The notes: generated by a model from the sequence alone, not told the origin. Shown: positions 12,497 through 40,097, numbered from the stretch's first letter. The stretch: 64,000 nt of DNA from Oceanispirochaeta sp. (GCA_963666275.2 CAXXOA010000002.1:1088001-1152000); one strand, 5' to 3'. Translations and numbers: made by a program.

Positions 12497-13717
12497 TCAA
12501 TACCGGATCAGCCGGGTCTCCCTCTCCATGATGAGTTTCCCTTTAAGAAAAATATGTGTCTTTTCTCCCTGATTGATCAGAGCTTCTTCAGGACTCTCTC
12601 CCTCTATGAGAACCAGATTCGCCTCTGAACCGGCAGTTAAACCGTAGTTTTCAAGGCGGAGAGCCATGGCGGGATTATCTGTAATCATCTCCGACAGGGG
12701 CCGGAGTTGTGAAGGGGTTCCTCTTTGGGTCAGCTGGGCTGTCAGAAGGGCCTCCTCCATAAGGTCGCCCCGTCCGAAGGGGCGGAAAGGATCCCTTATG
12801 TTGTCGGAGGACAGGGAAATATTCACACCCGCCTGCAGGAATTCATTGATCCTTGTGGTGCCGCGGCGCTGTTTCAGAGCATCATTGCGTCCCATGAGAA
12901 AGAGATTGCACGAGGGGAGTGTGACAATGTGTATCCCTGCCTGACGGACTTTTTCTATAACCCTTGCCGCTTCCTCCGGAGGAAGGGCATTTAAAGAGGT
13001 GCAGTGACCTGCTGTTACTTTTCCCTGCATCCCGGTTTCTATTGTTTTTTCGGCAATATATTCCAGGGCCCGGGCGCTGGGTTCGTCACTCTCATCCACA
13101 TGCAGGTCCAGAAGAAGATCATATTTCAGAGCCGTCTCAAAAAGGATATCCGTATAGTTTCTGTAATCGGCGCTTAGGGTCGGGCACCCTCCCAGGATTC
13201 GGCCCCCCTTCTGAATAGCCTGATGGACAAGCGAGTAGACAGGGTCGGACAGGTCGGCCCTCTGCATGTCTCCCGGAAACATGACAAGCTGAATCTCAAG
13301 GGGATGGGTCAGTTCCTTTTTGAATCTTAGCGCCGTATCCCAGGCTTTCAGCTGGAGCTCCGGAGAGAGGGTTATGTGGGTTCTTATGAAACCGGTTCCA
13401 TTGGCAAGGCACAGGTCCGCCATCTTCTGAGCCCTGAGAACAAAATCCTCTTCGGGGGCTTCACTCATATATTTGGTGGATTTTACAATCGCATCGATAA
13501 GACTCTCCGCGGGAGAGGAAATGCAGTCTTTGGTGAAGGTTTTATCCAGATGGGTATGAAGATCAATAAAAGAAGGATAGGCAATTTTTCCCTTTCCTTC
13601 AATAACTGTAAATGACCGGCTGCTGTCGGGAGTCTCTGTGATGAAGCCATCGCATATATAAAGATCTCTCTGCTGTCCCTTATAGTCTGTAATATCTTTT
13701 ATACAATAATTATTCAT
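12497..13717 (-). CDS. metal-dependent amidohydrolase, cytosine deaminase (CodA)/pterin deaminase-like family
   Basis: DLHTHLDK, IRTH, DLHVDES, TAGHC, SSDNIRDPFRPFG motifs typical of bacterial cytosine deaminase-like enzymes. Confidence 0.85.
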   Translation of the reverse strand: MNNYCIKDITDYKGQQRDLYICDGFITETPDSSRSFTVIEGKGKIAYPSFIDLHTHLDKTFTKDCISSPAESLIDAIVKSTKYMSEAPEEDFVLRAQKMADLCLANGTGFIRTHITLSPELQLKAWDTALRFKKELTHPLEIQLVMFPGDMQRADLSDPVYSLVHQAIQKGGRILGGCPTLSADYRNYTDILFETALKYDLLLDLHVDESDEPSARALEYIAEKTIETGMQGKVTAGHCTSLNALPPEEAARVIEKVRQAGIHIVTLPSCNLFLMGRNDALKQRRGTTRINEFLQAGVNISLSSDNIRDPFRPFGRGDLMEEALLTAQLTQRGTPSQLRPLSEMITDNPAMALRLENYGLTAGSEANLVLIEGESPEEALINQGEKTHIFLKGKLIMERETRLIRY

Positions 13718-14022
13718 AGTTTATTCCTGAATTTGTGTTAAGGGAATCTTAGATTGTTCGGAAAATTAAAACAATAAGGGAGAAACGGAATGGGGAAAAA
13801 CAGGAACCTTTACAGTATGAAACGGAAAAACAGACCAAAAAACATACAAAAATGTAGTTATAAGAAAAAATAAGTTAGGATATTATAGAATTTGTACGTA
13901 TAAATCCGCATTTGAAGGGTTCTCTGCGAAAAACAGGAAAATACGGATTGTGATTTTTATCAGAAAATGAATAAATATACTTACACAAAACAGGAAAGTT
14001 CTATTTTAAGGAGAGAACACAA

Positions 14023-15024
14023 ATGAAAAAAATTTTAACGGTATTGTCCTTTCTGGTCATTTCAGCAGCCCTTTCTGCTTCTGGAGCCCAGGATGCAGCC
14101 GGGGATTCTTCCAGTTCCCTGAAGGTGGCAGCTCTGCTGCCGGGACCAATTAACGACGGAGGATGGAATACTTCCATGTATGAATCTCTGAAACATCAGG
14201 AAGAAGTTTTAGGTGCGGAAATCGCCTATACAGAGAATACTCCTGAATCTGACTATGAAGAGATTTTCAGAACCTATGCTGAAAGCGGTTTCACTGTGAT
14301 TTTCGGACACGGATTCCAGTTCGGAGAGGCTGCCAAAAAAGTAGCTCCCAACTATCCCGATACTGTATTTATTGTAAACAGTTCCACCTTCACTCAGGAG
14401 CCCAATCTGGGATCTTTCCTGGTCAATGACTTCGAGTGCGGATTTGCCCAGGGAGCTATTGCAGCTCTGACATCCGAGTCTGACCTTGTCGCATTTATCG
14501 GTGGTGTGGAAATTCCCCCTATTGCAGCTCAGGGCGCCGGATTTGTTGCGGGTGCCAAATACATCAATCCCGACATTGATGCCCGTTTGATCATGACAGG
14601 CAGTTTTACCGATATTGCCCGGGCCAAAGAGGTTGCCTCTTCTCTGATCGAAGAAGGTGCGGATGTTCTGATCGGTGATGCCAATGAAGCGGGTCTCGGT
14701 GTTGTGGAAGCTGCTGAAGAAGCCGGTGTATATACCATGGGTTGTTCCAGTGACCTCTATGAAGCGGCACCTGATATGAAAGATGCCATCCTTGCCAGTG
14801 TTGTAGAAGACACTGCCAGAGGACATGAACTGATTATCCGGGATGTGATGAGCGGGAATTTTGTTCCCAAGAACTACCTGATCGGATTCAAGGACGAAGG
14901 CGCCGTGACTCTGACCTCTTTCAGGGATAAGGAATCTCTCTACACCGCTGAAGAGATGGAGACCATTATGGGAATCATCGAAGGCCTGTCTGACGGTTCT
15001 ATCGATGTGGAACAGTACAAATAA
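14023..15024 (+). CDS. BMP-family (nucleoside/purine-type) ABC substrate-binding protein 1
   Basis: Signal peptide; PGPINDGGWN, GHGFQF, FIGGVEIP, GSFTD motifs. Confidence 0.88.
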   Translation: MKKILTVLSFLVISAALSASGAQDAAGDSSSSLKVAALLPGPINDGGWNTSMYESLKHQEEVLGAEIAYTENTPESDYEEIFRTYAESGFTVIFGHGFQFGEAAKKVAPNYPDTVFIVNSSTFTQEPNLGSFLVNDFECGFAQGAIAALTSESDLVAFIGGVEIPPIAAQGAGFVAGAKYINPDIDARLIMTGSFTDIARAKEVASSLIEEGADVLIGDANEAGLGVVEAAEEAGVYTMGCSSDLYEAAPDMKDAILASVVEDTARGHELIIRDVMSGNFVPKNYLIGFKDEGAVTLTSFRDKESLYTAEEMETIMGIIEGLSDGSIDVEQYK

Positions 15025-15052
15025 ATATTGAACTAACAGGAACAAGGAACAT

Positions 15053-16039
15053 ATGAAAAAACTGACATTGACTTTAATGGTTTTACTTCTGTCTGCCGCT
15101 GTTTTTGCTGGCGGACAGTCTGAAGGTTCAGCAGATGATACGCTGAAAATCGCCTGTCTTCTGCCCGGTCCCGCCAACGACGGAGGCTGGAATACTCTGA
15201 TGTACAATTCTCTGAAACATCAGGAAGAAGTGTATGGTGCAGAGATCGCCTTTACAGAAAGGACCCCCGCCTCGGATTATGAAGAGATTTTCAGAGGATA
15301 CGCTGAAGCGGGATTTGATGTTATTTTCGGTCACGGCTTTGAATTCGGTGAACCCGCCACAAAAATAGCCGAGATGTATCCGGATGTAACTTTCATAATC
15401 AACAGTACCAATATCTCACAGGGACCCAACCTGGGATCTTTCCTTGTATACGATTTTGAGAGCGGATTCGCCCAGGGGGCTATTGCCGCTACTGTTTCCA
15501 AAAGCGGTATTGTCGGTTTTGTCGGCGGTATTGAGATTCCCCCCATTGTAAACCAGGCTGCCGGATTTGTCGCGGGTGCCAAATACGTGAATCCCGATAT
15601 TGAAGTCAAATCCATCCTGACAGGAAGTTTTGACGATATTGCCAAGGCTAAAGAAGTAGCTCTTTCCATGATTTCCGAGGGCGCGGACGTCCTTGTAGGT
15701 GATGCGGATGAAGCCAGCCATGGTGTGTTTGAAGCCGCAGAGGAAAACAGTGTCTATGTGATCGGATGTTCCACCGATCTGTACGAAACAGCACCCGATT
15801 ACAGGGATATCATCCTGACCAGTGTGACCGAAGACATGGCGAAAGGCCATGAACTTATAGTCAAAGGGATTCTGGACGGAACTTTCACAGCCAAAAACTA
15901 CCTTGTAGGATTTGAAAGCGGAGCTGTTGCTCTGGCACCCTACCGTGAAATGGAGTCTGTCTTTTCTGCCGAGCAGCTGGCTGCCATTGATGAAGTTATT
16001 GAAGGATTGAAAAGCGGTTCTATTGAACTGGCGCAGTAA
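15053..16039 (+). CDS. BMP-family ABC substrate-binding protein 2 (tandem paralog)
   Basis: Same motifs as the preceding gene (PGPANDGGWN, GHGFEF, GSFDD). Confidence 0.88.
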   Translation: MKKLTLTLMVLLLSAAVFAGGQSEGSADDTLKIACLLPGPANDGGWNTLMYNSLKHQEEVYGAEIAFTERTPASDYEEIFRGYAEAGFDVIFGHGFEFGEPATKIAEMYPDVTFIINSTNISQGPNLGSFLVYDFESGFAQGAIAATVSKSGIVGFVGGIEIPPIVNQAAGFVAGAKYVNPDIEVKSILTGSFDDIAKAKEVALSMISEGADVLVGDADEASHGVFEAAEENSVYVIGCSTDLYETAPDYRDIILTSVTEDMAKGHELIVKGILDGTFTAKNYLVGFESGAVALAPYREMESVFSAEQLAAIDEVIEGLKSGSIELAQ

Positions 16040-16049
16040 TTAGAAAATT

Positions 16050-17135
16050 ATGAAAAAATATCTTATTGGTCTTAAAAAAAACAAATCGTTCCTGCTGCAG
16101 TTCAGCGCTGTACTCTGCGCTTTTCTGCTGGGAGCAGTTATTCTGAAAATGATAGGCATCTCTCCCCTGAGAGCCTACGCCGCCCTGTTTCAGGGGGCCT
16201 TCGGAAGTAAAAACGGTCTGGCTGAAGTCTTCGTCAAGGCAACGCCTCTGATCCTGACAGGTCTCTCCTATGCCTATGCATCAAAAGCGGGACTGGTCAA
16301 TATCGGAGCGGAGGGACAGTTATATATGGGCGGTATGGCGGCCACTCTGGTTGGATCCCATTTTGCCGGGATGCCTATGATCATCCATATTCCCTTTGCT
16401 CTTTGTGCCGGTTTTCTGGCCGGCGCCCTCTGGGGGCTTCTGGCAGGATGGCTGAAAGTGACTTTTAAGGCCAATGAGATTATTACAACAGTCATGCTGA
16501 ACTATGTGGCCATGCTGTTTATCAGCTATCTGGTGACGGGCCCCATGAAGAACCCCGCCGGGAATATGCCCGAGAGTTCTCCCGTCCTGGAAAGTGCCAC
16601 CCTGTTCCGGATCTTGCCTGGGACCAGGCTTCATCTGGGCTTTGCTGTCGCCCTGGCGGCTCTTCTGTTCTATTACTTCTTTATATGGAAGATGAAACAG
16701 GGCTTTGAAATCCGGGTTGTGGGATTCAACAGAGAAGCGGCCCGGGCTGCGGGTATGTGGCCCGAAAAGACCCTTCTGCTGACCATGTTTCTGGCCGGCG
16801 GTATGGGGGGGCTGGCCGGGACTGTGGAAATCCTGGGGATCCAGGGGCGTCTGCTGCAGGCATTCAGCCCCGGGTACGGATTTGACGGCGTCGCCGTGGC
16901 ACTGGTGGGGATGAATCATCCTGCCGGGATCGGCCTGGGAGCCTTCCTTTTCGGAGTTCTCCGGGCTGGAGGAAACAGGATGCAGCTGATAGCGAAAGTG
17001 CCTGTTTCTGTTATCTATATTCTTCAGGGACTTGTTATTGTCTCTGTCATTGTGGGAATTCATCTGAAAAATCTGAATATTCCCTTGCTGAAAAAATTTG
17101 TCCGGAAAAATGAGGAAAAGGAGGCTGCCCTATGA
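16050..17135 (+). CDS. nucleoside-type ABC transporter permease 1
   Basis: ATPLILTGL, NIGAEGQ, NEIITTVMLNY, GYGFDGVAVAL. Confidence 0.92.
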   Translation: MKKYLIGLKKNKSFLLQFSAVLCAFLLGAVILKMIGISPLRAYAALFQGAFGSKNGLAEVFVKATPLILTGLSYAYASKAGLVNIGAEGQLYMGGMAATLVGSHFAGMPMIIHIPFALCAGFLAGALWGLLAGWLKVTFKANEIITTVMLNYVAMLFISYLVTGPMKNPAGNMPESSPVLESATLFRILPGTRLHLGFAVALAALLFYYFFIWKMKQGFEIRVVGFNREAARAAGMWPEKTLLLTMFLAGGMGGLAGTVEILGIQGRLLQAFSPGYGFDGVAVALVGMNHPAGIGLGAFLFGVLRAGGNRMQLIAKVPVSVIYILQGLVIVSVIVGIHLKNLNIPLLKKFVRKNEEKEAAL

Positions 17136-18061
17136 ATTTAGGATTTATGGATCTGTTGAACTACCTTTTAAATGCGGATCTGAGAATGGCGGCGCCTATC
17201 CTTATTGCCGCTCTGGGACTGCTGATTATGGAAAAGAGCGGTATTGTGAATATCGGATGTGAAGGCATGATGCTTCTCGGATCCTTTGTGGGTGTCTTTT
17301 TCGCCCGTGCCTTCGGTTCCCCCTGGATGGGGATCCTTTTTGCCGGTATGAGCGGTATGGTTCTGGGTCTGATCTATGCCGGGATCGTTGTTTCTCTGGG
17401 AGCCAATCAGATCGTGACGGGTATTTCCTTCAATCTGATCATTCTGGGCCTCACTTCTACACTGAACCGGGTCGTTTTCGGAGTATCGGGGCAGACAGCC
17501 AGAGCTCCGGGTTTTGAGAAAATTACAATTCCTTTTCTCAGTGATATCCCCATCCTGGGATCTCTTTTCAATCTGCCCGGACCGGTCTATCTGATACTGC
17601 TGTTTGTACCGGTTCTGAGCTATTTCTTTAAAAAAACGACCATCGGACTGAAGATCCGTTCGGTGGGAGAGTATCCCAATGCGGCAGATGCCGCCGGGAT
17701 CAATGTGTATAGAGTCAGGTATCTGTCCATTCTGGCGGGAGGATTTCTGATCTCCGCCGCGGGAGGTTTTCTGTCTCTGGGAGTTCTCAGCCTTTTTACT
17801 GAAAACATGGTCAGCGGCCGGGGCTATATTGCCATGGCTGCGGTGATCTTCGGAAACTGGAATCCCTGGGGCGTTCTGGCTGCCACTCTGGTTTTCGGTA
17901 TGGGAGAGGCTGTGCAGATCAAAATGCAGACAGCCAGCAGCGCTATTCCCTATCAGCTGCTGATGATGATTCCCTATATCCTGACCATTCTGGCCCTTTC
18001 CGGATTCGTGGGAAGATCCAATGCCCCCGCTTCATCGGGAAAACCTTTTAAGAGCCAATAG
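17132..18061 (+). CDS. nucleoside-type ABC transporter permease 2
   Basis: EKSGIVNIGCEG, RSVGEYP, GRGYIAMAAVIFG, MIPYILT. Confidence 0.92.
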   Translation: MNLGFMDLLNYLLNADLRMAAPILIAALGLLIMEKSGIVNIGCEGMMLLGSFVGVFFARAFGSPWMGILFAGMSGMVLGLIYAGIVVSLGANQIVTGISFNLIILGLTSTLNRVVFGVSGQTARAPGFEKITIPFLSDIPILGSLFNLPGPVYLILLFVPVLSYFFKKTTIGLKIRSVGEYPNAADAAGINVYRVRYLSILAGGFLISAAGGFLSLGVLSLFTENMVSGRGYIAMAAVIFGNWNPWGVLAATLVFGMGEAVQIKMQTASSAIPYQLLMMIPYILTILALSGFVGRSNAPASSGKPFKSQ

Positions 18062-18074
18062 GGAGAGAGTGAAT

Positions 18075-19580
18075 ATGTTGAAAATGCGCGGAATCACCAA
18101 GGTCTATCCGGCGGTGGTTGCCAATAAAAATATCAATCTGGATCTGGCTCCCGGGGAAGTCCACTCCCTGCTGGGAGAGAACGGCGCCGGAAAGAGCACC
18201 CTTATGAATATCCTGGCGGGAGTTATAAAACCGACCGAAGGGGAGATAGAGCTGGAGGGAAAGCCTGTTCAGTTCAGTTCCGCCAAGGATGCGATCCTTC
18301 AGGGGATCGGCATGGTGTATCAGCACTTTATGCTGATCCCGAAACTGAGTGTAGCTGAAAATATTGTTCTCGGTATGAAACGGGAGAAGGAACCCTTTCT
18401 TCAGATCCATAAAGTGGCAAAGGAGATTGAAAAGTTCGCCAGACAGTACAATATGAATCTGGATCCCTTTGCCCGGGTGGACAGTCTGTCCGTAGGAGAG
18501 CAGCAGAGGGTGGAGATTGTGAAAGCCCTCTACAGAGGAGCGAAAATCCTCGTTCTGGACGAACCCACAGCCGTACTGACTCCCCAGGAGATCGACGAGC
18601 TTTTCAATATGATCCGCCTTTTCATTTCGGAAGGACGGTCTGTAATCTTCATCAGTCATAAGATGGATGAAGTCCTTGAAATCAGCGACAGAATTTCCAT
18701 TCTCCGGAAAGGTGAGATGATAGAAACTCTGGTGAATGAGGACATCTCGAAAGAAAAGCTGGCAGGCCTGATGGTGGGACGGGATGTCTCATTCAGTATC
18801 GAGAAAACAGGATGCAAACCCGGAAAGGAGATGCTCAAGCTTGAAAATGTTTCCGTTTCCAAGAGCAAGGGAGTCGATGCCCTGGCGGAGCTCTCTTTTT
18901 CTGTCTCCCAGGGAGAGATCCTGGGGGTCGCCGGGGTTGATGGAAACGGGCAGAGCGAGCTTCTTGAGGTTATTACAGGCCTGAAAAGGGTCAGAAACGG
19001 CAAAGTAATGCTGGCGGGAAAAGAGATCCATCACAGATCTCCCCGGGATATTCTGGAGATGGGACTGGCCCATATTCCCGAAGACAGACATGTCCGGGGG
19101 CTTGTCCTTGATCTGGATATTAAAGAAAACTTCATGGTGAACGACTATCATAAGAGCCCCCATACAAAGGGAAGTCTCATCGACTGGGCTTTTATTGCCG
19201 AGCATGCCAGGGAATATGCGGAACATTTCGATGTACGGACTCCCTCTCTGGAAGTCCCTGTATCCAGCCTTTCCGGAGGAAACCAGCAGAAGCTGGTCCT
19301 GGCCCGGGAACTCCACGGAGAACCCAAAGTCATTGCGGCGATGCATGCCACCAGGGGGCTTGATGTAGGGGCTATCGAGTATGTTCATACAAGGATTCTG
19401 GAGCAAAGGGAGCGGGGAGCTGCCATCCTCTATATCTCTACAGAGCTGGAGGAACTGATGAATCTTTCCGACAGACTCATGGTCATGTGCCGTGGTAGAA
19501 TTATCGGCATAGTTGATCCAAGGGAGGTGACAGTGGAGCAGGTCGGGCTGATGATGGCCGGCCATCCTCTGGAAGACTGA
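18075..19580 (+). CDS. nucleoside-type ABC transporter ATP-binding protein
   Basis: GENGAGKS, LSVGEQQRVEI, DEPTAVLTPQE, GVDGNGQ, LSGGNQQK; start placed at ATG 18075 after GGGAGAG. Confidence 0.93.
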   Translation: MLKMRGITKVYPAVVANKNINLDLAPGEVHSLLGENGAGKSTLMNILAGVIKPTEGEIELEGKPVQFSSAKDAILQGIGMVYQHFMLIPKLSVAENIVLGMKREKEPFLQIHKVAKEIEKFARQYNMNLDPFARVDSLSVGEQQRVEIVKALYRGAKILVLDEPTAVLTPQEIDELFNMIRLFISEGRSVIFISHKMDEVLEISDRISILRKGEMIETLVNEDISKEKLAGLMVGRDVSFSIEKTGCKPGKEMLKLENVSVSKSKGVDALAELSFSVSQGEILGVAGVDGNGQSELLEVITGLKRVRNGKVMLAGKEIHHRSPRDILEMGLAHIPEDRHVRGLVLDLDIKENFMVNDYHKSPHTKGSLIDWAFIAEHAREYAEHFDVRTPSLEVPVSSLSGGNQQKLVLARELHGEPKVIAAMHATRGLDVGAIEYVHTRILEQRERGAAILYISTELEELMNLSDRLMVMCRGRIIGIVDPREVTVEQVGLMMAGHPLED

Positions 19581-19581
19581 T

Positions 19582-20325
19582 ATGGGAAATATTATCGAAC
19601 CCCTGACTCTGAAAGACACCGGGGCACCCAAATATAAGATTATAGCCGATGAGATCAGGGAACAGATCCGTTCCCTCACTCCCGGTCATAATAAGCTGGA
19701 AACGGAAGAAGTCCTGGCGGAAAGGACCGGTACCAGCCGGTCCACTATCCGTCAGGCCATCACCCAGCTCATCGAAGAGGGATATATTACCCGGATTCAG
19801 GGAAAGGGAATGTTCGGTCATCCCATGGTGCATGATCTGAAAATGCGCGTGGATATGGATATGAACTTCCGGCAGATCCTCGGGGTGGGGGGGTACCGTG
19901 TCTCCGTCTCCCAGTCTGACGGATATGTAACGGGAGCTTCGCCCCGTTTGTGCAAAAGGTTCCCTGAATATGAATCCGCCAGGGTTTTCGAGTTTCACTG
20001 GACCTACTTCGCAGACAACAGGGAGGCTATTTTCTGCCGGACCCAGGTGCCTCTGGAGCTGATGAAAAAGAATCTCAGTCCCATTCCGGCAGTCTCTCTC
20101 AAGGACCTTCTGAAGGATATCTGCGGAATGGAGGTGGCTTTTACCACTGCCTGGACAAAGGCTGTTCTGGACAGGGAGGCCATGGGGATTTTCGGACTTC
20201 CAGAGAATGATCCTGTTCTGGCATGGGACGAATTCTTTTTTGATCTGAATGATTATTTTATCTGTTTTAATGAAATCTTGTTTAATCCCGAAATAGTGGA
20301 TATGGCCAGAATCACCCGATTCTGA
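19582..20325 (+). CDS. GntR-family (HutC/UTRA-type) transcriptional regulator
   Basis: N-terminal wHTH (KLETEEVLAERTGTSRSTIRQAITQL...GKG) plus a UTRA-sized C-terminal domain. Confidence 0.85.
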   Translation: MGNIIEPLTLKDTGAPKYKIIADEIREQIRSLTPGHNKLETEEVLAERTGTSRSTIRQAITQLIEEGYITRIQGKGMFGHPMVHDLKMRVDMDMNFRQILGVGGYRVSVSQSDGYVTGASPRLCKRFPEYESARVFEFHWTYFADNREAIFCRTQVPLELMKKNLSPIPAVSLKDLLKDICGMEVAFTTAWTKAVLDREAMGIFGLPENDPVLAWDEFFFDLNDYFICFNEILFNPEIVDMARITRF

Positions 20326-22651: not shown

Positions 22652-23320
22652 ATGAAAGTATTGGGTATTTGCGGCAGCCCCCGAAAAGGGGCCACCGAAT
22701 GGTCTGTGAAAAAAGCTCTGGAGGTTCTGGAAGGGTATCCCGGGATTGAAACGGTCTACTGGTCCGTCCGGGGAAAGAAAATAGGTCCCTGTATTCACTG
22801 CGACCGCTGTATCCGGGAAAATTCCATGTGTACCATTCAGGACGATTACAAAGAGGTGGAAGCCCTGATCCTGGAAGCCGATGCGATTCTGGTGGGAAGC
22901 CCTGTCTATGATATGAATGTGACCGGCCAGCTGGCCATGGTGTTCAACAGAACGCGGCCTCACTATCTTGTTCATGCGGGAGGCCTGAAGAACAAAGTCG
23001 GTGCCGCTCTCTCTGTGGGGGGAACCCGTCACGGGGGGCAGGAAATGACCAATATGGCTATTATCAACTTTTTCCTGATGCATGAAATGCTTGTCACCGG
23101 AGGACTGGGGGGCTGCTACAACGGCGGAACCGTCTGGTCCAGAGATGACAGGGTGGCAGGAGCCGAAAAGGACGGCCCCGGAGCCGATACGGTCATCCGG
23201 CTGGCCCAGGGTATGGCCGAAGCGGTGATCACAATAGAGCATGGCCGGAAAACCGCCTACGAAATCATGGAGAAGGCTGAAAAACTCCAGGGATCCAACT
23301 CTCCCATCAGAGATCATTAA
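22652..23320 (+). CDS. iron-sulfur flavoprotein (Isf)/multimeric flavodoxin-like protein 1
   Basis: GSPRKG, CIHCDRCIRENSMC (CxxCxxCx5-6C), GSPVY, GGTRHGGQE. Confidence 0.88.
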   Translation: MKVLGICGSPRKGATEWSVKKALEVLEGYPGIETVYWSVRGKKIGPCIHCDRCIRENSMCTIQDDYKEVEALILEADAILVGSPVYDMNVTGQLAMVFNRTRPHYLVHAGGLKNKVGAALSVGGTRHGGQEMTNMAIINFFLMHEMLVTGGLGGCYNGGTVWSRDDRVAGAEKDGPGADTVIRLAQGMAEAVITIEHGRKTAYEIMEKAEKLQGSNSPIRDH

Positions 23321-23339
23321 GAAAGGAACGCAATCAGTC

Positions 23340-27245: not shown

Positions 27246-27265
27246 TAATGAATAGAGGTGTGTTG

Positions 27266-31268: not shown

Positions 31269-31864
31269 GGCTCCTCAATCAGCTCTTCCCCTGCCCAGGA
31301 CTTCAGCCTGTCAGAGCTGATCCCCAGGGATTTCAGTATCCTTGCGGAGATCTGCTGGAGCAGATCGTCGATGGTTTCCGGGTTGTGATAAAACGAAGGG
31401 ATCGGCGGGAGTATAACAGCTCCCGCATCGGTCAGATTCAGCATGTTTGTCAGATGTATTCTATTGAAAGGGGCTTCCCGGGGAACAAGGACCAGAGACC
31501 TTTTCTCTTTGAGTGAAACGTCCGCAGCTCTCTCTATGAGATTCCGGGATATTCCGGCGGAAATCCCACCCAGAGTTCCCATGGAGCAGGGGGCAATGAT
31601 CATGCCGTCATAGAAGGAGGATCCGCTGGCAAGAACGGAGGCCATATTATTCCACTGTTCCCGGAGGATCTTCCCCCTCTGGCCTTTGAGCCAGTTTTCC
31701 CAGGATATTCCGGTTTCGTGTATAGCCACCTGATCAGCCCAGTTGGATATGATCAGACTGATTTCCGCCTCCCGGTCCTGCAGGTCTGTTATAAGCTGCC
31801 GGGCAATAGCCGTTCCCGAAGCGCCGGTTATGCCCAGAATAATTTTTTTCGGTTTCTGTATCAT
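31265..31864 (-). CDS. ubiX: flavin prenyltransferase
   Basis: GITGASG, ASGS, APCSMGTL, RAADVSLKEKRSLVLVPREAP, PSFYHNP. Confidence 0.93.
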   Translation of the reverse strand: MIQKPKKIILGITGASGTAIARQLITDLQDREAEISLIISNWADQVAIHETGISWENWLKGQRGKILREQWNNMASVLASGSSFYDGMIIAPCSMGTLGGISAGISRNLIERAADVSLKEKRSLVLVPREAPFNRIHLTNMLNLTDAGAVILPPIPSFYHNPETIDDLLQQISARILKSLGISSDRLKSWAGEELIEEP

Positions 31865-31960: not shown

Positions 31961-32698
31961 ATGGCGTCCAGAATACAGGTCGGAGCATCACGTACAGAGC
32001 TCGTTAAAGCAGAGATTCTCAATATTATAAAGGAACAGAATCCCCGGTTGAAAAAGCTTCCTTCCGAAGGGGATCTGTCCCGCATTCTGGGAGTCAGCAT
32101 CTCCACCATACGGGAAGCTCTCAGACTCCTCAATAAAGAGGGGTTTATAACCAAAAAACACGGATCAGGGAACTATATCCACTGGAGCGCCCTGGATTGT
32201 CCCATGCGGATAGATCTTATCTTCGATTTCCGGCAGCTCATGGCGGACAGCGGAAACCCAGTCTCGGAAATTACAGAGCGAATGAGGGAAGTGAAGTCGG
32301 GATATCTGGAAAAAGAGACCCTCAGCCTGCCTGAGGGGAGTGACATCCTTGAATATACAAGAACCTATGTTTCCTTTGCGGGAACAGGAATCCTCTCAGT
32401 GAGCAGTGTTCCCCGGGATCTTGTAAAAAGAGACGGACTGGACAGAGATTCTTTTGCCACTCTGGGAGATTTTATCTGGCAGAGCTGCGGCAGGGAGGTG
32501 GCCCACTCTCTGTGCACATTTATTCCTGTCATCTCTGATGAAGAGCTGAACAGTGTTTTCGGCTTTCATGAAAACAAGGCACTGATCCAGTGGCAGGAGA
32601 TCTTCTATGATCAGGAGGATGATCCTGTCCTTACCACAAAAGTGTACTTCAATCCGGATCTGATCATTATGAGTCTTTTACGCAAACAGGATCACTGA
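31961..32698 (+). CDS. GntR-family (HutC/UTRA-type) transcriptional regulator 2
   Basis: LPSEGDLSRILGVSISTIREAL...HGSG wHTH; C-terminus resembles the GntR at 19582 (FNP motif). Confidence 0.87.
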   Translation: MASRIQVGASRTELVKAEILNIIKEQNPRLKKLPSEGDLSRILGVSISTIREALRLLNKEGFITKKHGSGNYIHWSALDCPMRIDLIFDFRQLMADSGNPVSEITERMREVKSGYLEKETLSLPEGSDILEYTRTYVSFAGTGILSVSSVPRDLVKRDGLDRDSFATLGDFIWQSCGREVAHSLCTFIPVISDEELNSVFGFHENKALIQWQEIFYDQEDDPVLTTKVYFNPDLIIMSLLRKQDH

Positions 32699-32724: not shown

Positions 32725-33570
32725 TTAAACATCATTCAGTCTGTTCAGCAGGGTTTCCTTTGTTTCATCAAGGCTGCTGATCGTTTCAGGAGAGCCGCAT
32801 ACGGCAAGGACTGTGAACAGGACATCCGCCAGGTACATAAGAGACAGGCGGGACTCTGTCGTCCCCGTATAGGCATAGATATCCAGATAGCTCCCGATCA
32901 GAGTGTAATCTGATAACAGGGCCAGAGGGGATTCCTCATTGTTGGTCATACAGACTATCGTCGCCTGATTCTTTTTTGCCTTTTCGGCCATCTCGATCAT
33001 ATCCCTGTCGTATCCCGAAAATGAGAGGAACCAGGCTATGTCATTCCTTTTCAGATTGTTGGCTGATATCTGCTGGAAAACAAGATCTGTCTGGAAAATC
33101 GATTCTATCCCCAGCCGGGAAAATTTATTCAGCAGGTCAAGTGCGACCACAGAGGATCCTCCGACACTGAAAAGCTGTATCTTCTTTTTGCTGAGGATTA
33201 AATTCACAAGCTTGTCCAGCTGAAGGGGATCCAGCTGGTTCAGGGTTTTTTCAAGGGCACTGCACTCTTTTGAAAAAATTTTGGCAGCAATCCCCATGGT
33301 TGAGTCATCAGCGCTGACTCCCTCCTGCAGCAGGGAGTAGCTGGCGGCGACCTGATGGGCCACCGCAAAGGAGAAAGCTCTGAAATTCTCATATCCCAGT
33401 TTTCTGCAGAACCGGGAGATGGTGGATTTACTGGCGCCGGTTATTTTCGACATGTTTACGATGGAAATATTTTCAATGTCCTCCAGGTTGGCGAGAACAT
33501 AATCTTTCAGACTTTTTTCAGTTTTTGAAAAAGTATTCTTTTTATCCTCCAGTTTCGCTAGTAAATCCAT
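32725..33570 (-). CDS. RpiR/MurR-family transcriptional regulator
   Basis: SKSTISRFCRKLGY HTH plus SIS domain (GGSSVVA, SFSG, SPLA). Confidence 0.92.
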   Translation of the reverse strand: MDLLAKLEDKKNTFSKTEKSLKDYVLANLEDIENISIVNMSKITGASKSTISRFCRKLGYENFRAFSFAVAHQVAASYSLLQEGVSADDSTMGIAAKIFSKECSALEKTLNQLDPLQLDKLVNLILSKKKIQLFSVGGSSVVALDLLNKFSRLGIESIFQTDLVFQQISANNLKRNDIAWFLSFSGYDRDMIEMAEKAKKNQATIVCMTNNEESPLALLSDYTLIGSYLDIYAYTGTTESRLSLMYLADVLFTVLAVCGSPETISSLDETKETLLNRLNDV

Positions 33571-33591: not shown

Positions 33592-34212
33592 TTATTGTTT
33601 TGATTCGAAAATCCTCTTCCCTTCATTGTAGATCAGCGTGGTTTCGGCAAGTTTTTTCACCAGGGAGCTCACGGTTTCAAATCCGATTGTATCATCTTCC
33701 TGCTGCAGATCCTTGATATCTCTGGACCATACTTTTCCGCCGATATACCCTCTTTCCTCATTGCTCACAACGTTGAATCCTCTTGTCATAAGCAGATGAA
33801 GAATGGTGTTCAGAGCTGATTCCTGGCCACCGTTTCTTGTGCCGCCCACAGTAAAGCCCGCTCCCAGTTTATTCCGCAGGACTCCCGGTTTCATTACACC
33901 AACAGGCCTGAGCCGGGAAAAAAACGCCATAAGCTGAGGCGTGATGGTGTGCACATAAACAGGGCTTCCTATCAGAACCGCATCAGCGGTAATAAAAGAA
34001 TCGATAAGGCTCTGCATATCGTCCTTGAAAATACACCATGATTTGTTTTTTCTACAAGATCCGCATCCGTTGCAGGGGGCTATTTTTTTACCGCGCAATG
34101 AAATTATCTCAGTTTCAATGTCTTCGCCTGCTACTTCAGAAAGGGCGTTTTCAAGTATGTTAAGTGTGGCTCCCTTTCTGGGACTTCCTGATAATCCTAA
34201 AATTCTGATCAT
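33592..34212 (-). CDS. iron-sulfur flavoprotein (Isf)-like protein 2
   Basis: GSPRKG, CNGCGSCRKNKSWC, GSPVY, GGTRNGGQE. Confidence 0.88.
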   Translation of the reverse strand: MIRILGLSGSPRKGATLNILENALSEVAGEDIETEIISLRGKKIAPCNGCGSCRKNKSWCIFKDDMQSLIDSFITADAVLIGSPVYVHTITPQLMAFFSRLRPVGVMKPGVLRNKLGAGFTVGGTRNGGQESALNTILHLLMTRGFNVVSNEERGYIGGKVWSRDIKDLQQEDDTIGFETVSSLVKKLAETTLIYNEGKRIFESKQ

Positions 34213-34264
34213 ATCTTAATCCTTTGTTCTCTTACTCTGAAATGGAAACAGGTCTCCCTGAATC

Positions 34265-35602
34265 TCACTGTTTAAGGAAAGCATCCAGATCCACAGCGGG
34301 ATAGGTGACTCTTCTGTAATCATCTTTTATCTTAAGGTCAATGGTCGCATCGATGGCGAATTTTGTCTGCATTCCCTCTTCGTCGGTGGTGGGGTCATTT
34401 TCCATTCCCTGGGCATAGGGAACCGTCACAATGTCCTTATTCGCATCCACCCGGGTGGACATGGCCCATAGGATGTCAGCGGGAAGATAGATGTTCACAT
34501 CAGGGTCCACAACCACAGCAATTTTGATATTCACATGGGTCATCAGAGCCGCCATGGCCACATTCTTGGGTTCTCCCGAATTGGTTTTGCTCAGAGCCAC
34601 AATCGCCATAAATCCCCCTGTGTAGGGTGTGAGGTGAACATCGGTCACATTGGGAGACACATGGGAAACCATCCTTTTCAGCATGGGTTCACGGGACAGC
34701 ACGTTTCCTACATTTATATGCTCATTGGAGGCGGGAATAATCGTCTGATAGATTGGATTATTCCGATAACAGATGGAAGTCACCTCTATCACAGGCATAT
34801 ACTGATGCTCTCCATAGTGTCCTGTAAACTCGGCAAGAGGGCCTTCGTCTTCCCACTCTTTTATCTTGACAAATCCTTCCACCAGAATCTCCGTATCGGC
34901 GGGAACATTGATATCCACAGCGTTGCCTCGGGCCACTTTCAGGGGTTCCCCGTTCAGGGCTCCCGCCAGGTAGGCTTCATCCTCTTCAATGCGGAATCCA
35001 GTAGAGATTTCCACTGCCGGATCCACGCCGATGGCAATGGCTATGGGCATATCTTCCCCTTTTGCCTCATACTTTTTAAAATTCTGATAGATATGCCTCC
35101 ACTCGTTCATCATCAGTCCCAGTTTCCGGGGGCCCTTGACCTGCAGTCGGTTGAAGGAAAAGTTCTGCCTTCCCGTTTCGGGATCTTTGGAGACTATAAT
35201 CCCTCCGGTTATATAGGGGCCTGCATCGCCGGAATTGTGATGGGGAATGGGAAGCTGTTCCAGGAGATTGATATCCTCTCCGCTTATGATGTTCTCCAGG
35301 AACGGGGGATTTTCCACAACTTCCGGAGCCATCAGTCTGCCCAGTGCCTCATCTACTTTCTGATTTATCTCCTGTTCTGTACAGTCCAGAGCCAGGGCAA
35401 TGCGCTTCATATGACCCAGTACTCCGCCGACGATGGGAATCCCCGAAGGATTGTCCGTATTGGTAAACAGTCCGGCTGGTCTTCCTTCTTTTTCCATGGC
35501 ATTTTCAATTGCCGCGAATTCAAAATCCAGTTTCACTTTTTTATCAATTTCAATCAATTGACCGTTCTGTTTCAGTTTTTCTAAAAATTGTCTCAGTTCC
35601 AT
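34265..35602 (-). CDS. UbiD-family prFMN-dependent (de)carboxylase 2
   Basis: LPIP..DAGPYIT, NFSFNRL, EGPLAEFTGHYG, VVVDPDVNI, AIDAT. Confidence 0.92.
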   Translation of the reverse strand: MELRQFLEKLKQNGQLIEIDKKVKLDFEFAAIENAMEKEGRPAGLFTNTDNPSGIPIVGGVLGHMKRIALALDCTEQEINQKVDEALGRLMAPEVVENPPFLENIISGEDINLLEQLPIPHHNSGDAGPYITGGIIVSKDPETGRQNFSFNRLQVKGPRKLGLMMNEWRHIYQNFKKYEAKGEDMPIAIAIGVDPAVEISTGFRIEEDEAYLAGALNGEPLKVARGNAVDINVPADTEILVEGFVKIKEWEDEGPLAEFTGHYGEHQYMPVIEVTSICYRNNPIYQTIIPASNEHINVGNVLSREPMLKRMVSHVSPNVTDVHLTPYTGGFMAIVALSKTNSGEPKNVAMAALMTHVNIKIAVVVDPDVNIYLPADILWAMSTRVDANKDIVTVPYAQGMENDPTTDEEGMQTKFAIDATIDLKIKDDYRRVTYPAVDLDAFLKQ

Positions 35603-35715: not shown

Positions 35716-36522
35716 CTATTTAAGGATTCCCTCTTTGACAAAGGTATGCCTGATATCGGTGGCATGCTTCTGGAACAGGGGTGTATCCTGGATGCTTAGA
35801 TCTCTCGGCCGTTTCAGGTCGTCCAGTTCTTTGGTATAGAGCACTCTTCCCGGCCGTTTTGACATTACCAGGACTCTGTCCGCAAGGAACACGGCCTCGT
35901 AGATGTTATGGGTTATGAAAAGCACCGTATTGCAGTTCTTCTGCCATATCTTTACAAGGTCGGCAGTCATCTGTTCCCGGGTCAGCGAGTCAAGAGCACC
36001 GAAGGGCTCGTCCATCAGGAGCAGGGGCGGGCGGGTAATCAGGGCCCGGCAGATGGATACACGCTGCCGCATTCCTCCTGAAAGTTCATAGGGGTATCTG
36101 TTTTCAAACCCCGCCAGCCCGGCCATTTCAAGGAGTTCCATGGCCCTGTCCCTGTATTTTTCAACGGGTCCCAGCTTTTTGATCTCTATAGGGAGCAGGA
36201 CATTCTCTATCACAGAGCGCCAGTCCATCAGGAAGTCCTGCTGAAAAACAAATCCAATATCTGTGTAGGGTTTCTCCACCAGCTGATCGGCTATTCTGAT
36301 CTCTCCGGTGGAACTCTTTAAAAGTCCGCTGATAAGCATCAGCAGCGTACTCTTTCCACAGCCGCTGGGACCAACTATGGACAGGAACTCTCCGGCCTTT
36401 ATATCCAGGGAAAATTCCTCCAGCGCCTGAAGGGGGCCATCGGACGTTTCATACACTTTGGTAACACCTGATATTTTTATGGGAAGGCCCTTTGCTGAGC
36501 CGTTGTTTTCAAATTCACTCAC
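35716..36522 (-). CDS. NitT/TauT-family ABC transporter ATP-binding protein
   Basis: [33 protein letters not shown] start at 36522 inferred from an AGAGGAGA RBS. Confidence 0.92.
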
Positions 36523-36565
36523 AGTTCTCTCCTCTCTGCTTTTATATTCTTTGCCATTGCCTCTG

Positions 36566-37402
36566 TTACTCTTTGCGGTTGGGGTCACCTTTGATACACA
36601 CTTTTTCAATCAGGTTCACCACATTAAAAAGGACAATTCCCATGAGGGAAAGGATTATAAGGATCGCAAATACCATCGGGGTATCAAGATTGCCTCCGGC
36701 TACAACCTGGTAGTATCCCAGACCTTTGTTGGCGGCAACGTATTCTCCCACAACAGCTCCGACCACCGAAAGGGTTATACCGACTTTCAGTCCCGCAAAG
36801 ATATTGGGAAGAGCCTGGGGAACCCTGAATTTCCAGAACTGCTGCATTCCAGAAGCACCCAGGGAACGGGCCAGGTAGAGCATCTCCCTGCTTATGGATT
36901 TCAGACCGATGACGGAGTTGACAATAATAGGGAAAAAACACACAAGAAAGGCAACCATCAGGGTCGGGATAATACTGAATCCGAACCAGGCTACAAGGAT
37001 AGGAGCCAGGGCCACTTTGGGAATCGCCTGAGCGGAAACCAGCAGAGCGTAGGCAGTCTTTTCAAACAGGGGAACATAGACAATCAATATGGCCAGAGGA
37101 AAACCGACGCCCATGGCAATCAGGAATCCGAGAAGCACTTCGTAAAGGGTCACCCAGCTGTGTCCGGCCAGAACCCGCCAGTTTTCGGCAACAGTTTTCA
37201 ATATTACCGAAGGGGCGGGAATCAGATAGATCGGTGCATCCAGAATCCTGACAAGAAACTCCCACAGAACTATCAGGAAAACAACTGAGAAGATAGTATA
37301 CATATTATTCGTGAAAAAAGAGAGACACACTCTCTCCTTCTTTTTTGTGCCCGCTTTACTTCTCTTTTCCGCGGGACCACTATTTCCCAATATTTCTGCC
37401 AT
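36566..37402 (-). CDS. NitT/TauT-family ABC transporter permease
   Basis: IPAPS, QAIPKVALAPIL, FFPI, ARSLGAS, ALPNIFAGLK, GLG. Confidence 0.9.
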   Translation of the reverse strand: MAEILGNSGPAEKRSKAGTKKKERVCLSFFTNNMYTIFSVVFLIVLWEFLVRILDAPIYLIPAPSVILKTVAENWRVLAGHSWVTLYEVLLGFLIAMGVGFPLAILIVYVPLFEKTAYALLVSAQAIPKVALAPILVAWFGFSIIPTLMVAFLVCFFPIIVNSVIGLKSISREMLYLARSLGASGMQQFWKFRVPQALPNIFAGLKVGITLSVVGAVVGEYVAANKGLGYYQVVAGGNLDTPMVFAILIILSLMGIVLFNVVNLIEKVCIKGDPNRKE

Positions 37403-37495
37403 AAAGAACATCACCTCTAATATTTAATTAAGTTATGGAGACCCGGCGGTTTTCCACCGGGACTCCTGTATAGTTTTCAGAAAACTCAGATTGTA

Positions 37496-38542
37496 TTACT
37501 CATCAATAAATGCATTTGTATAGTATTCGCCAACGGGTTCACGGGAATCCAGAGCTCCGTTGTCATACATGATAGCGATAGTACGTTCGAGACTGTCTTC
37601 TGATATCCATCCGTAGGGTTTCCCTTCTGTCTCTTCGGTGCTGAACAGCTCGATGGTTCTGGCTACCTGATTCCTTGTAATTTCCTTATTGAGTTTATCA
37701 GGGAAGAGTGAGTACATAAGGTCAGCCGCTTCCTCGGGATGAGCCACGGTATATTCTGCTCCTCTCCGTACAGCTCTGTTGACAGCGGCGACAATTTCGG
37801 GATTCTCTTCAATGTATTTATCCGAAGCAACCAGTCCGTGAGCCATCATGTTGAAACCGAAGTCTCCAATGAAGAAATAATTGAAATCTTTTCCGGTTTT
37901 GGCTTCCAGAGTCGCCAGGTCATTGGTTGAGTAACCGGCCATCATCTCAACATTACCGTTCAGGAAGGCGGCCGTTTTGGCGCCCCAGTCGGCTATGATC
38001 AGATTGACACTGTCGGTATCCACTCCGTTATAGCTCAGAAAGGCATCCAGAATCATCTGCATGGATCCACCAGCTGTATCCACAATGGTTTTACCAGCCA
38101 TATCTGCAGGGGTCTCCAGTTTTACTTCCGGCAGGGCCATAACAACCTGGGGCAGCTTCTGCAAATAGCATGATGTCATTTTGATCTTCATCCCTTTGGA
38201 ACGGGCAACAATAGCGTCATCGGCGGCAAGATAGGAAAACTGGTCGTCTCCTGATACAAGCAGCTGAGCCGGAGTGGCTTTTTCCGAACCTTCAAGGATG
38301 GTTATGTCGATACCTTCTTCGGCAAAATATCCCAGCTCCTGGGCTACAAAAAGATGGGCGTATTCCCCTTTGATGAGCCAGCTGAGCCTTAGATTAACGG
38401 GGGTGAGTCCGTTTTCTCCTGCTGTACTGTCATCCGATGATCCATTGGCAAAACAGAATGTTGAAGCACCCGTCGCCATCAGTAAAACCATTCCAATCTT
38501 CCAGAATCCCTTAAGAACTCTGTTCCCGTTTAAAATACTCAT
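37496..38542 (-). CDS. NMT1/THI5-like (NitT/TauT) ABC substrate-binding protein
   Basis: Signal peptide; LRLSW, FVAQELGYFAEEGID, HGLVAS..I.ENPE, HPEEAA, YYTNAFI. Confidence 0.85.
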   Translation of the reverse strand: MSILNGNRVLKGFWKIGMVLLMATGASTFCFANGSSDDSTAGENGLTPVNLRLSWLIKGEYAHLFVAQELGYFAEEGIDITILEGSEKATPAQLLVSGDDQFSYLAADDAIVARSKGMKIKMTSCYLQKLPQVVMALPEVKLETPADMAGKTIVDTAGGSMQMILDAFLSYNGVDTDSVNLIIADWGAKTAAFLNGNVEMMAGYSTNDLATLEAKTGKDFNYFFIGDFGFNMMAHGLVASDKYIEENPEIVAAVNRAVRRGAEYTVAHPEEAADLMYSLFPDKLNKEITRNQVARTIELFSTEETEGKPYGWISEDSLERTIAIMYDNGALDSREPVGEYYTNAFIDE

Positions 38543-39029: not shown

Positions 39030-39236
39030 ATGCCGGTTGTTAATGTTATGTTATGGGAAGGCAGAACTGTCGAACAGAAGAGAGAATTGGCTGCTTCAAT
39101 CACAGAGAGTGTGGTTGAAATCGGCAAATGTCCCAGAGAGAGTGTGGTTGTAACCTTCAGTGATTTTCAGAAATCAGACTGGGCTGAAGGAGGTTACCTG
39201 GCAATAGATAAGGTCAGATATCCGAAAGAAGATTAA
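39030..39236 (+). CDS. 4-oxalocrotonate tautomerase-family protein
   Basis: Met-Pro start (catalytic Pro1), EGRTVEQKREL, W..GG; 68 aa; AAGGAG RBS. Confidence 0.9.
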   Translation: MPVVNVMLWEGRTVEQKRELAASITESVVEIGKCPRESVVVTFSDFQKSDWAEGGYLAIDKVRYPKED

Positions 39237-39296
39237 TCTTTTTATTCAGAAAAAAAATTACATAGAATGAATCCTATTCAGGATCAGGAGGAAATT

Positions 39297-39704
39297 ATGA
39301 GTACACAGCATACAATTCTTGTTCAGGGGGCCGTCTTTTATGCCTACCACGGGGCAACCCCGGAACAGATTAAACAGGGACAGCGCTTTATTATCGATGC
39401 CGAAGTCAGTTCGGACATGAGCAAGGCCTGTCAGGATGATTCGGTGGAAGGGATTGTGAATTACCCTGAAATTTTCAAAATCATTGAAGATATCACGACC
39501 AATGAAAGATTCAATCTCATGCAGAAACTGGCATTGAGGATTATTGAAAAAATTAAAAGTGATTTCCCCGATGTCAGCAGAATCAGTCTTTCCGCCAGAA
39601 AAGCCATGTGTCCTTTCTACCGTGACTGCAAAACAGTACCGGGCGGAGGCGGTTTTATTACAGATAACGGCGGATGCGGCGTGACTCTGGTTCGGAATTT
39701 CTAA
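39297..39704 (+). CDS. folB: dihydroneopterin aldolase (FolB)-like T-fold protein 1, divergent active site
   Basis: FYAYHG...GQRFIID, VNY, FNLMQKLA, ARK; start ATG 39297 after AGGAGG. Confidence 0.82.
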   Translation: MSTQHTILVQGAVFYAYHGATPEQIKQGQRFIIDAEVSSDMSKACQDDSVEGIVNYPEIFKIIEDITTNERFNLMQKLALRIIEKIKSDFPDVSRISLSARKAMCPFYRDCKTVPGGGGFITDNGGCGVTLVRNF

Positions 39705-39728
39705 TCAAATATAGAGGGGAAATAGAAT

Positions 39729-40097
39729 ATGAAAAATTATGATATACTGAAATCAAACGGGATGATGTTCTGGGGAAACCATGGTCTGACCGAAGAGCAG
39801 AATGTAATGGGAACCAAATTTGTCGTAGACATTGAAGTGACCCTGGATATGTCAAATCAGTTTGCGGAAGATCAGCTGAGCAGCGGCCTTACCTATACGG
39901 ATCTTTATCTGATTACACAGCAGGTTGTGACTCAGGAGCATTATAAAACCATACAGAGAGTGGCTCAGAGAATTACCGATGAGATTAAAAACACCTCAAA
40001 AACACCCATCGAAGGTGTATCTGTCACTGTAAAAGAGCAGTTTCCCGCTATTCCGGGGTCCAATGTTGAATACATAGGTTTTACTCTGAACAGTTAA
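39729..40097 (+). CDS. folB: FolB-like T-fold protein 2, divergent active site
   Basis: FWGNHG...GTKFVVD, LTY, KTIQRVAQRI, PAIPG...GF. Confidence 0.78.
   Translation: MKNYDILKSNGMMFWGNHGLTEEQNVMGTKFVVDIEVTLDMSNQFAEDQLSSGLTYTDLYLITQQVVTQEHYKTIQRVAQRITDEIKNTSKTPIEGVSVTVKEQFPAIPGSNVEYIGFTLNS

Follow-up and report, generated by a model that had tools for sequence, protein, structure and literature searches.

We found a conserved catabolic gene island at positions 12,497–40,097 of a 64,000-nucleotide stretch of Oceanispirochaeta sp. DNA (GCA_963666275.2 CAXXOA010000002.1:1088001-1152000; this whole stretch is called the window and lies on contig C2 of the source genome, G000). Its genes probably cover the upper steps in the breakdown of pterins (the ring system of folate and biopterin) substituted at C6. 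It comprises a CodA-like deaminase, BMP- and THI5/NMT1-type ABC importers, two molybdenum (Mo) hydroxylases (MoA and MoB), two UbiD proteins with a UbiX, an aldehyde dehydrogenase (ALDH), an iron-containing alcohol dehydrogenase (Fe-ADH), two iron-sulfur flavoproteins (Isf), a 4-OT-family tautomerase and two FolB-like proteins, FolB1 and FolB2 (Table 1). All of these genes, listed in the initial annotation, were recovered in place by Pfam and NCBIfam scans, the 4-OT gene included. Its remark that folK, folP and folE are missing from the window also holds, as none of the 54 open reading frames (ORFs) scanned with Pfam matched them.

Aerobes already have a published pterin pathway with a Mo enzyme, UbiD, UbiX and a deaminase (PMC12391406); novelty lies not in the concept but in the enzyme set, which differs from that of the aerobic route. 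Pterin-breakdown genes are not known to have been named before 2025, when they were reported for an aerobe that degrades rings lacking a side chain. The literature within our search, most subscription journals lying outside it, names no genes for the oxygen-free degradation of neopterin, biopterin or folate remnants, and no anaerobic pteridine gene cluster, Gln74 FolB or pterin-6-carboxylate UbiD was found there. The island provides a short list of enzymes for this process, and its enzyme set suggests an anaerobic life of the organism.

Recurrence of the island in other genomes

A second Spirochaetia genome (G401) carries nearly all of the island in another gene order, and parts of it are found in eight more. 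Because it recurs in G401 with orthologues at 44–88% identity, the assemblage is not a chance one. The identities are 45% for the deaminase, 55% for MoA, 70% for the BMP system, 76% for the THI5 system, 78% for the ADH, 79% for ALDH, 84% for UbiD1 and 88% for UbiD2, and no MoB orthologue was found in the 80 kb of G401 inspected. The 4-OT/FolB1/FolB2 triplet occurs twice in tandem in G401 (L089:2588-4743). A third FolB (FolB3), which has Gln74 and keeps Glu22, Tyr54 and Lys100, lies directly upstream of UbiD1-ALDH-ADH-AOR.

One set of 401 genomes of the class was searched three times, with the deaminase, UbiD1 and a Gln74-family profile; G536 of this set has the coordinates of G401. The deaminase gave seven matches, six of them orthologues and one (G713, 35%) belonging to another group, and UbiD1 gave ten, including all six genomes with a deaminase orthologue. 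The profile, which at E<=1e-12 misses some ordinary FolBs, gave 20 matches, 16 with Glu74 and four with Gln74, the latter all among the six deaminase genomes. The pattern is nested: every genome with a Gln74 FolB (4) also has the island deaminase (6), and every genome with that deaminase has UbiD1 (10). Overall, the distribution is patchy. Among 401 phylum-wide genomes UbiD1 was found in one, with no other carrier; the UbiD2 query matched 2 of 38 family genomes, and the UbiD2 and FolB2 queries matched none of ten same-genus genomes. Named homologues outside these genomes belong to Bacillota and Chloroflexi.

A FolB branch with Gln74

Both island FolBs belong to a clearly undescribed branch of FolB proteins. 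The conserved binding and catalytic residues of FolB are Glu22, Tyr54, Glu74 and Lys100, and the product is bonded to a Glu74 and a Tyr54 that come from different chains (PMC11328599). In an alignment of FolB1 with enzymes of S. aureus and Bacillus, both Glu sites are occupied by Gln, and the same holds for FolB2. Both Gln residues are invariant in the ten FolB1 homologues aligned (11 were found), and both Glu residues are kept in all 80 control FolBs retained from 276 metagenome candidates. Among 168 FolB domains surveyed, 139 are Glu/Glu and 23 have Gln74, the latter including single proteins and both halves of three tandem fusions. In a quick tree, a branch of 97% SH-aLRT splits 21 Gln74 domains from 24 Glu74 domains, which fits a single origin of the former without proving it. 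The single, paired and tandem-fused forms are spread over Spirochaetia and Bacillota, including metagenome-assembled genomes of Oscillospiraceae and Clostridiales; Gln74 FolBs of Bacillota include MEL7608392.1, MEL7610128.1, MDD6435980.1, MCI8477886.1 and MEW6308691.1. A metagenome scan with the FolB1 alignment returned Glu-type FolBs only, with no island genes nearby; plasmid matches to a Gln74 FolB were all at <=40%, the annotated ones being folB, and an ESM Atlas search returned generic FolB clusters only.

In dihydroneopterin aldolase, Glu74 recognizes the pterin at its 2-amino edge, whereas urate oxidase uses a Gln against the oxo edge of its substrate. By this analogy, Gln74 would suit a deaminated (lumazine) ring. 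The predicted structure of FolB1 (pLDDT 78.5) is a T-fold of the FolB type, matching 1SQL (Z 14.5, root-mean-square deviation 3.3, 118 aligned residues) and 1DHN (Z 14.4, 2.7, 114), with urate oxidase as a neighbour (Z 12.4). Dihydroneopterin aldolase and urate oxidase are both T-fold proteins (PMC2229834).

The island pair shares the T-fold with dihydroneopterin aldolase FolB (EC 4.1.2.25). Tyr54 and Lys100 both occur within the pair, but its catalytic residues are divided over two genes. FolB1 has both residues, and the Tyr54 site is Cys or His in 8 of the 10 aligned family rows (Bacillota homologues); proteins of the FolB2 type keep Tyr54 and have Glu or Gln at position 100. Since the residues of a site come from adjoining chains, one complete site per FolB1-FolB2 pair could form in an alternating ring, and the paired form would then have a composite active site. 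The ring is probably mixed, FolB1 supplying Gln74 and Lys100 and FolB2 supplying Tyr54. A 2+2 model of the pair scored 0.77 (best control 0.00), its runs sharing at least 63% of contacts with a partner pLDDT of at least 81; the mark applied is reached by 116 of 157 solved pairs and 2 of 215 mismatched pairs. This pass adds little, because likeness to solved FolB rings makes it expected.

We rejected a role of the island FolBs in folate biosynthesis or salvage. An ordinary folB-folK-folE operon is present on contig C1, with folP elsewhere in the genome, and, in contrast to FolB (EC 4.1.2.25), the Gln74 copies stand away from folK and folP. No folK was detected in G536, which has five Gln74 FolBs, or in G486, which has one, and these proteins thus have no folate partner there. 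The separate operon and the two carriers without detected folK argue that the branch is not biosynthetic. Gln74 offers a one-residue rule that sets probable catabolic FolB paralogues apart from folate enzymes. As FolB1 passes the folB cut-off (TIGR00525) and its relatives are publicly labelled 'dihydroneopterin aldolase', predictions of folate prototrophy can be misled.

Other FolB architectures were seen in the survey. P0015, P0017 and P0024 are FolB-FolB fusions in tandem; each half carries Gln74, whereas Tyr54 is present in the first half only. Other tandem FolBs (P0014/18/19/25/134) have Glu74 and a Cys-rich tail, and longer FolB-containing proteins of genus g165 (L157, L158 and L162) have Ser in place of Tyr54.

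Candidate pathway and alternatives

The substrates would be pterins with neopterin- or biopterin-type chains, or those that folate decay leaves with a hydroxymethyl, formyl or carboxy group at position 6. After uptake by the BMP and THI5 importers, the CodA-like enzyme would deaminate C2 to give a lumazine, and the Gln74 FolB pair would cut the diol chain by a retro-aldol reaction to leave 6-hydroxymethyl lumazine. Fe-ADH and ALDH (AOR in relatives) would then oxidize CH2OH to COOH, and UbiD1, a candidate lumazine-6-carboxylate decarboxylase, would release CO2 with prenylated flavin mononucleotide made by UbiX. UbiD2 might act on a second carboxylate or a differently substituted ring. The Mo enzymes, which lack a flavin adenine dinucleotide (FAD) subunit in the island by Pfam scan, would hydroxylate or dehydroxylate C6 or C7, with Isf and flavodoxin-like carriers; Isf1 is a possible electron carrier replacing the FAD subunit. 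The 4-OT, UbiD2 and the THI5 system accompany the FolB pair and might act on a second substrate. We infer every substrate, the step order and the roles of the 4-OT, UbiD2 and Mo enzymes from the sequences. Lumazine-6-carboxylate has been named a candidate intermediate of folate breakdown (PMC9513972), and pterin deaminase activity is cited for Clostridium acidi-urici (PMC13197243).

This scheme follows the initial annotation in its pteridine substrate and its order of import, deamination, cleavage, oxidation and decarboxylation, which gain support from the Glu74Gln change, the extra-copy FolBs, the FolB3-UbiD1-ALDH-ADH series of G401 and the class co-occurrence; its xanthine-8-carboxylate end does not. 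That end belongs to the route of Cupriavidus sp. LA-1 (cluster I), which leads from pterin or lumazine to xanthine and handles rings that bear no carbon side chain. Its enzymes are a pterin deaminase, an NAD-linked Mo dehydrogenase of three subunits (L, S and FAD-M), an isomerase of the amidohydrolase-2 family and, as the xanthine-8-carboxylate decarboxylase (XCDC), a UbiD with UbiX; rhizobial clusters use a CDA-like deaminase (Doi, Maeda, Takaya 2025, PMC12391406). The S. meliloti pSymB locus, which has the cluster-I gene set, stood in for LA-1 in our sequence comparisons. The island shares with cluster I of LA-1 a pterin deaminase candidate, a xanthine-oxidoreductase-family enzyme, UbiD with UbiX, and importers, and with rhizobial cluster I a CodA-like deaminase and a BMP ABC system (34% and 39%). 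However, it lacks the isomerase pair, a linked GTPase chaperone, the FAD subunit and an NCS2 permease, and adds Gln74 FolBs, ADH/ALDH, 4-OT, Isf, a second UbiD and a second Mo enzyme. The S. meliloti DHLI-like isomerase pair gave no tblastn match in G000 at E<1e-8. The best match to the cluster-I GTPase (33%) lies elsewhere in the genome, the single PF04909 gene is far from the island, and MoA and MoB are 33–34.5% identical to the cluster-I Mo enzyme, no closer than other G000 paralogues. Since the isomerase pair is unmatched, the UbiDs form their own clade at 29–30% identity to the S. meliloti enzyme of XCDC type and no three-subunit Mo dehydrogenase akin to that of cluster I is present, we rejected membership in cluster I; the first two reasons also leave the conversion of tetrahydroxypteridine to xanthine-8-carboxylate without support.

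Both UbiDs score above the TIGR00148 cut-off and keep the Arg and E-x4-E motif, and a UbiX partner is present. In a quick tree they and their relatives form a clade (starred) separate from the HmfF-like and XCDC-like rows, the S. meliloti row being a long branch. This new clade is a candidate group of heteroaromatic (de)carboxylases. A third UbiD stands by a UbiA-looking gene (G000:C1:47340-48788) and would depend on the island UbiX.

In the deaminase, all metal and catalytic residues of CodA (HxH, H-x2-E, H and D) are kept in an alignment to 3O7U and 4R7W. The substrate-binding Gln of the CodA FPQ motif, which we take to be Gln156, is absent, all five aligned island-type deaminases having FPG. 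The protein scores 185.8 of 483 bits for PRK09230, below the NCBIfam CodA cut-off. It is 32–34% identical to the cluster-I enzymes; like the rhizobial ones, it has lost the Gln of FPQ and carries the motif SDNIxDPF. In a search of 72,556 plasmids with BMP2, the top matches inspected (Shinella, Paracoccus and S. meliloti) lie in cluster-I-type loci; the neighbourhood of the top THI5 plasmid match was uninformative. The deaminase-plus-BMP unit common to the island and these loci is a weak pointer to pterins. In the Shinella plasmid, a class II aldolase gene (L123:9517-10317) directly precedes the deaminase and three BMP genes of the cluster-I locus; in aerobes, its product might cleave the side chain as the Gln74 FolB would here.

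Ring opening is probably the task of a reductive-urate-like cluster of G000 (C3:280048-293276, outside the window), in place of a contraction to xanthine-8-carboxylate. That this cluster acts on a pteridine product, by reductive opening rather than contraction, is the least supported step and is suggested by analogy. The cluster encodes a pyridoxal phosphate (PLP) enzyme, a PreA-like reductase, xanthine dehydrogenase (XDH) subunits, amidohydrolases and a YgeY-like protein. The reductive urate (2,8-dioxopurine) pathway uses XdhD, YgfK, SsnA, HyuA, YgeW, YgeY and YgeX (PMC12990295); the C3 cluster resembles it in its XDH subunits, SsnA-like and other amidohydrolases, YgeY-like M20 protein and PLP enzyme, but has a PreA-like reductase instead of YgfK. 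The islands of G401 and G580 include an amidohydrolase of 467 residues, which in G550 is a neighbour of UbiD1; its 56% orthologue in G000 stands first in the C3 cluster, where two more amidohydrolases follow. A similar urate-type cluster adjoins island genes in G401, G434 and G580. More tentatively, the Gln74 FolBs might constitute a lumazine side-chain aldolase family that, with the new UbiD clade and the reductive ring-opening cluster, makes up a full oxygen-independent pathway for neopterin, biopterin and folate-derived pterins, bypassing xanthine-8-carboxylate.

Several observations weigh against the pterin pathway. The six deaminase genomes represent four genera, so the co-occurrence is a pattern and not a statistic. 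The Gln74 FolB was not found in six of the ten UbiD1 genomes (G434, G507, G509, G521, G550 and G580), five of which are drafts of 200–430 contigs; four of the six are also without a deaminase orthologue, and G580 has the deaminase, BMP system, AOR, UbiD1, ADH and UbiX together, with no FolB found. The modules are scattered in G486 and G504. In trees, the island deaminases join neither the cluster-I enzymes nor CodA, and no sister relation is recovered between the BMPs of the island and those of cluster I; by bit score, the deaminase best matches proteins of E. faecalis and Aminobacter whose gene neighbourhoods are of purine type. FolB2 has no Lys100, and both island FolBs lack Glu22. Finally, a pteridine-reductase-like short-chain dehydrogenase/reductase (SDR) beside UbiD1 in G434 and G507 is no more than a weak hint of pteridines, scoring under the family cut-off (190 of 288 bits) with generic SDRs as best PDB matches. 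The two SDRs (L095:7754-8485 and L186:697-1431; 51% mutual identity) have the pteridine-reductase-like GxxRxG and a His for the catalytic Tyr, and stand by an amidohydrolase.

Alternatively, the core module might remove the hydroxymethyl substituent of an amino-pyrimidine or of a pyridine (5-hydroxymethylcytosine, the hydroxymethylpyrimidine of thiamine or a B6 vitamer), the FolBs being accessory, although this is unlikely. Deamination, oxidation of CH2OH to COOH and decarboxylation would be followed by reductive pyrimidine breakdown (PreA-like, hydantoinase-like and M20 proteins). The best PDB match of the deaminase is indeed the cytosine deaminase 4R7W, that of the THI5 binding protein is 3IX1, which binds a thiamine-pyrimidine precursor, and the best NCBIfam models for the BMP system are those of a putative B6 ABC transporter (NF047927-30). 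A PreA-like gene is linked, and AOR-UbiD1-ADH-UbiX is found in G580, G507 and G509, where no Gln74 FolB was found. However, these matches are distant and under cut-offs (115–121 of 400 bits for the B6 models), the CodA Gln is lost, and the Gln74 FolB would go unexplained, both its place directly before UbiD1 in G401 and its presence in four of the six deaminase genomes.

Another fused ring with a 2,4-dioxo edge is a rather improbable substrate: a modified purine, xanthine-8-carboxylate formed by another isomerase (the FolB pair itself might be this enzyme), or a ribityl- or methyl-lumazine derived from flavins. Gln74 would fit any uracil-like edge, as the urate oxidase analogy and T-fold likeness imply, and two UbiDs, two Mo enzymes, the adjoining or gene-sharing urate-like cluster and the kinase/aldolase/ADH/ABC module recurring nearby accord with such a ring. 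On the other hand, the Glu and Arg with which XDH binds purines are absent from MoA and MoB at the positions that we take to be theirs (in an alignment without a xanthine oxidoreductase row), and the two proteins score 552 and 587 of 780 bits against the XDH equivalog, under its cut-off. The UbiDs lie outside the XCDC-like branch, single Gln74 FolBs retain the aldolase pair Tyr54/Lys100, and flavin-derived lumazines need no deaminase.

Still less probable is a mosaic island, in which two or three modules (deaminase-BMP-Mo; ADH-ALDH-UbiD1; THI5-UbiD2-4-OT-FolB pair) would handle different heterocycles, with UbiX and regulators in common but no single pathway. Three regulators, the separation of modules in G486 and G504, the presence of UbiD2 in only G000 and G536 among the ten UbiD1 genomes, and a G+C content of 52% in 12497-31268 vs 46.5% in 31265-40097 would fit a mosaic. 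The BMP, Mo-enzyme and UbiD1 genes are joined in one run, though, G401 and G580 unite the modules in other orders, and the class sample shows the nesting described above.

An hmf-type furan pathway (conversion of hydroxymethylfurfural to furandicarboxylic acid (FDCA) by ADH and ALDH, decarboxylation by HmfF/G, a Mo furoyl-CoA dehydrogenase) is very improbable and was rejected: the nearest solved UbiD structure, 6H6V, which we take to be an HmfF-type enzyme, the 'FDCA decarboxylase' label of relatives at JGI and the ADH-ALDH-UbiD-UbiX-Mo enzyme logic of hmf-like plasmid clusters point to it, but the identity is only 35–37%, the UbiDs have their own clade and NEWRH pocket motif, no CoA ligase was detected in the window (no AMP-binding family in the 54 ORFs and no motif match), and the deaminase, nucleoside-type importers and FolBs would have no role.

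Gene arrangement and surroundings

Besides the genes listed initially, the island contains two GntR regulators, one RpiR regulator and one Flavodoxin_2 protein. Positions 14023-31268 form a single co-directional run with intergenic gaps of -8 to 72 bases, figures that use four start codons picked by hand.

Table 1. Features of the island, with window positions and strand (FolB residues in S. aureus numbering)
Feature	Position	Strand	Remarks
CodA-like deaminase, candidate pterin deaminase	12497..13717	-	Metal ligands kept; CodA FPQ Gln replaced by Gly
BMP/PnrA-like binding protein 1	14023..15024	+	Pfam
BMP/PnrA-like binding protein 2 (BMP2)	15053..16039	+	Pfam; best plasmid matches in rhizobial and Paracoccus cluster-I-type loci
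ABC permeases (two) and ATPase	16050..19580	+	Pfam, NCBIfam
GntR/UTRA regulator 1	19582..20325	+	Pfam; behind ATPase also in G401, G580, G486, G504
MoA, Mo hydroxylase large subunit	20338..22647	+	Catalytic Glu motif KSIGE intact
Isf1 iron-sulfur flavoprotein	22652..23320	+	Pfam; motif CX2CX2CX5C
2x[2Fe-2S] small subunit	23241..23825	+	Pfam, NCBIfam; start probably ~23340
MoB, fused Fe-S/Mo protein	23809..26574	+	Desulfovibrio-type aldehyde oxidoreductase architecture
Flavodoxin_2 NAD(P)H oxidoreductase	26588..27196	+	Pfam; 60% orthologue in G401
UbiD1	27248..28600	+	NEWRH signature of an uncharacterised clade; Arg and E-x4-E kept
ALDH	28644..30128	+	Pfam; AOR takes its place in G580, G507, G509
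Fe-ADH	30138..31268	+	Pfam
UbiX flavin prenyltransferase	31265..31864	-	Pfam; sole UbiX detected in genome (tblastn)
GntR/UTRA regulator 2	31961..32698	+	Pfam
RpiR regulator	32725..33570	-	Pfam
Isf2 iron-sulfur flavoprotein	33592..34212	-	Pfam; motif CX2CX2CX5C
UbiD2	34265..35602	-	47% to UbiD1, same clade; nearest named relatives in Bacillota
THI5/NMT1-type ABC importer	35716..38542	-	Binding protein 37496-38542, permease, ATPase
4-OT-family tautomerase	39030..39236	+	Pro1, Arg11 kept; Arg39 replaced by Val; duplicated alongside FolB pair in G401
FolB-like 1 (FolB1)	39267..39704	+	Gln22, Tyr54, Gln74, Lys100
FolB-like 2 (FolB2)	39729..40097	+	Gln22, Tyr54, Gln74; Lys100 replaced by Glu

An AT-rich (32% G+C) divergent region at 38543-39029 separates the THI5 operon from 4-OT-FolB. 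An Rfam scan of the window, this region included, gave nothing at gathering score, and a guessed operator pattern gave no signal (7 matches vs 6.1 expected). A search of sequencing runs turned up no RNA data.

Elsewhere in the window, the regions 121-5314 and 44700-46708 hold 2-oxoacid dehydrogenase genes with a fused 819-residue E1 and, further on, genes for a lipoate ligase and an HMGL-like aldolase. A 162-residue ORF at 41735-42223 (-) has no Pfam or NCBIfam match, and a 692-residue LacI regulator at 47100-49178 (-) carries an additional sugar-binding domain. In G580, an MttB-family methyltransferase-like gene (L106:4256-5746) and a second BMP ABC system adjoin the island. On contig C3, the urate-like cluster is followed by genes for GntR, an FGGY kinase, a DhnA-type aldolase, a zinc-dependent ADH, a sugar ABC system and an amidohydrolase (G000:C3:280048-301890). 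Parts of this sugar module, which is perhaps for a polyol or glycoside chain, occur near UbiD1 in G434, G580 and G550. Two 426-residue ORFs with identical starts, which resemble reverse transcriptases, lie 3.9 kb apart on the same contig (G000:C3:270519 and 274429).

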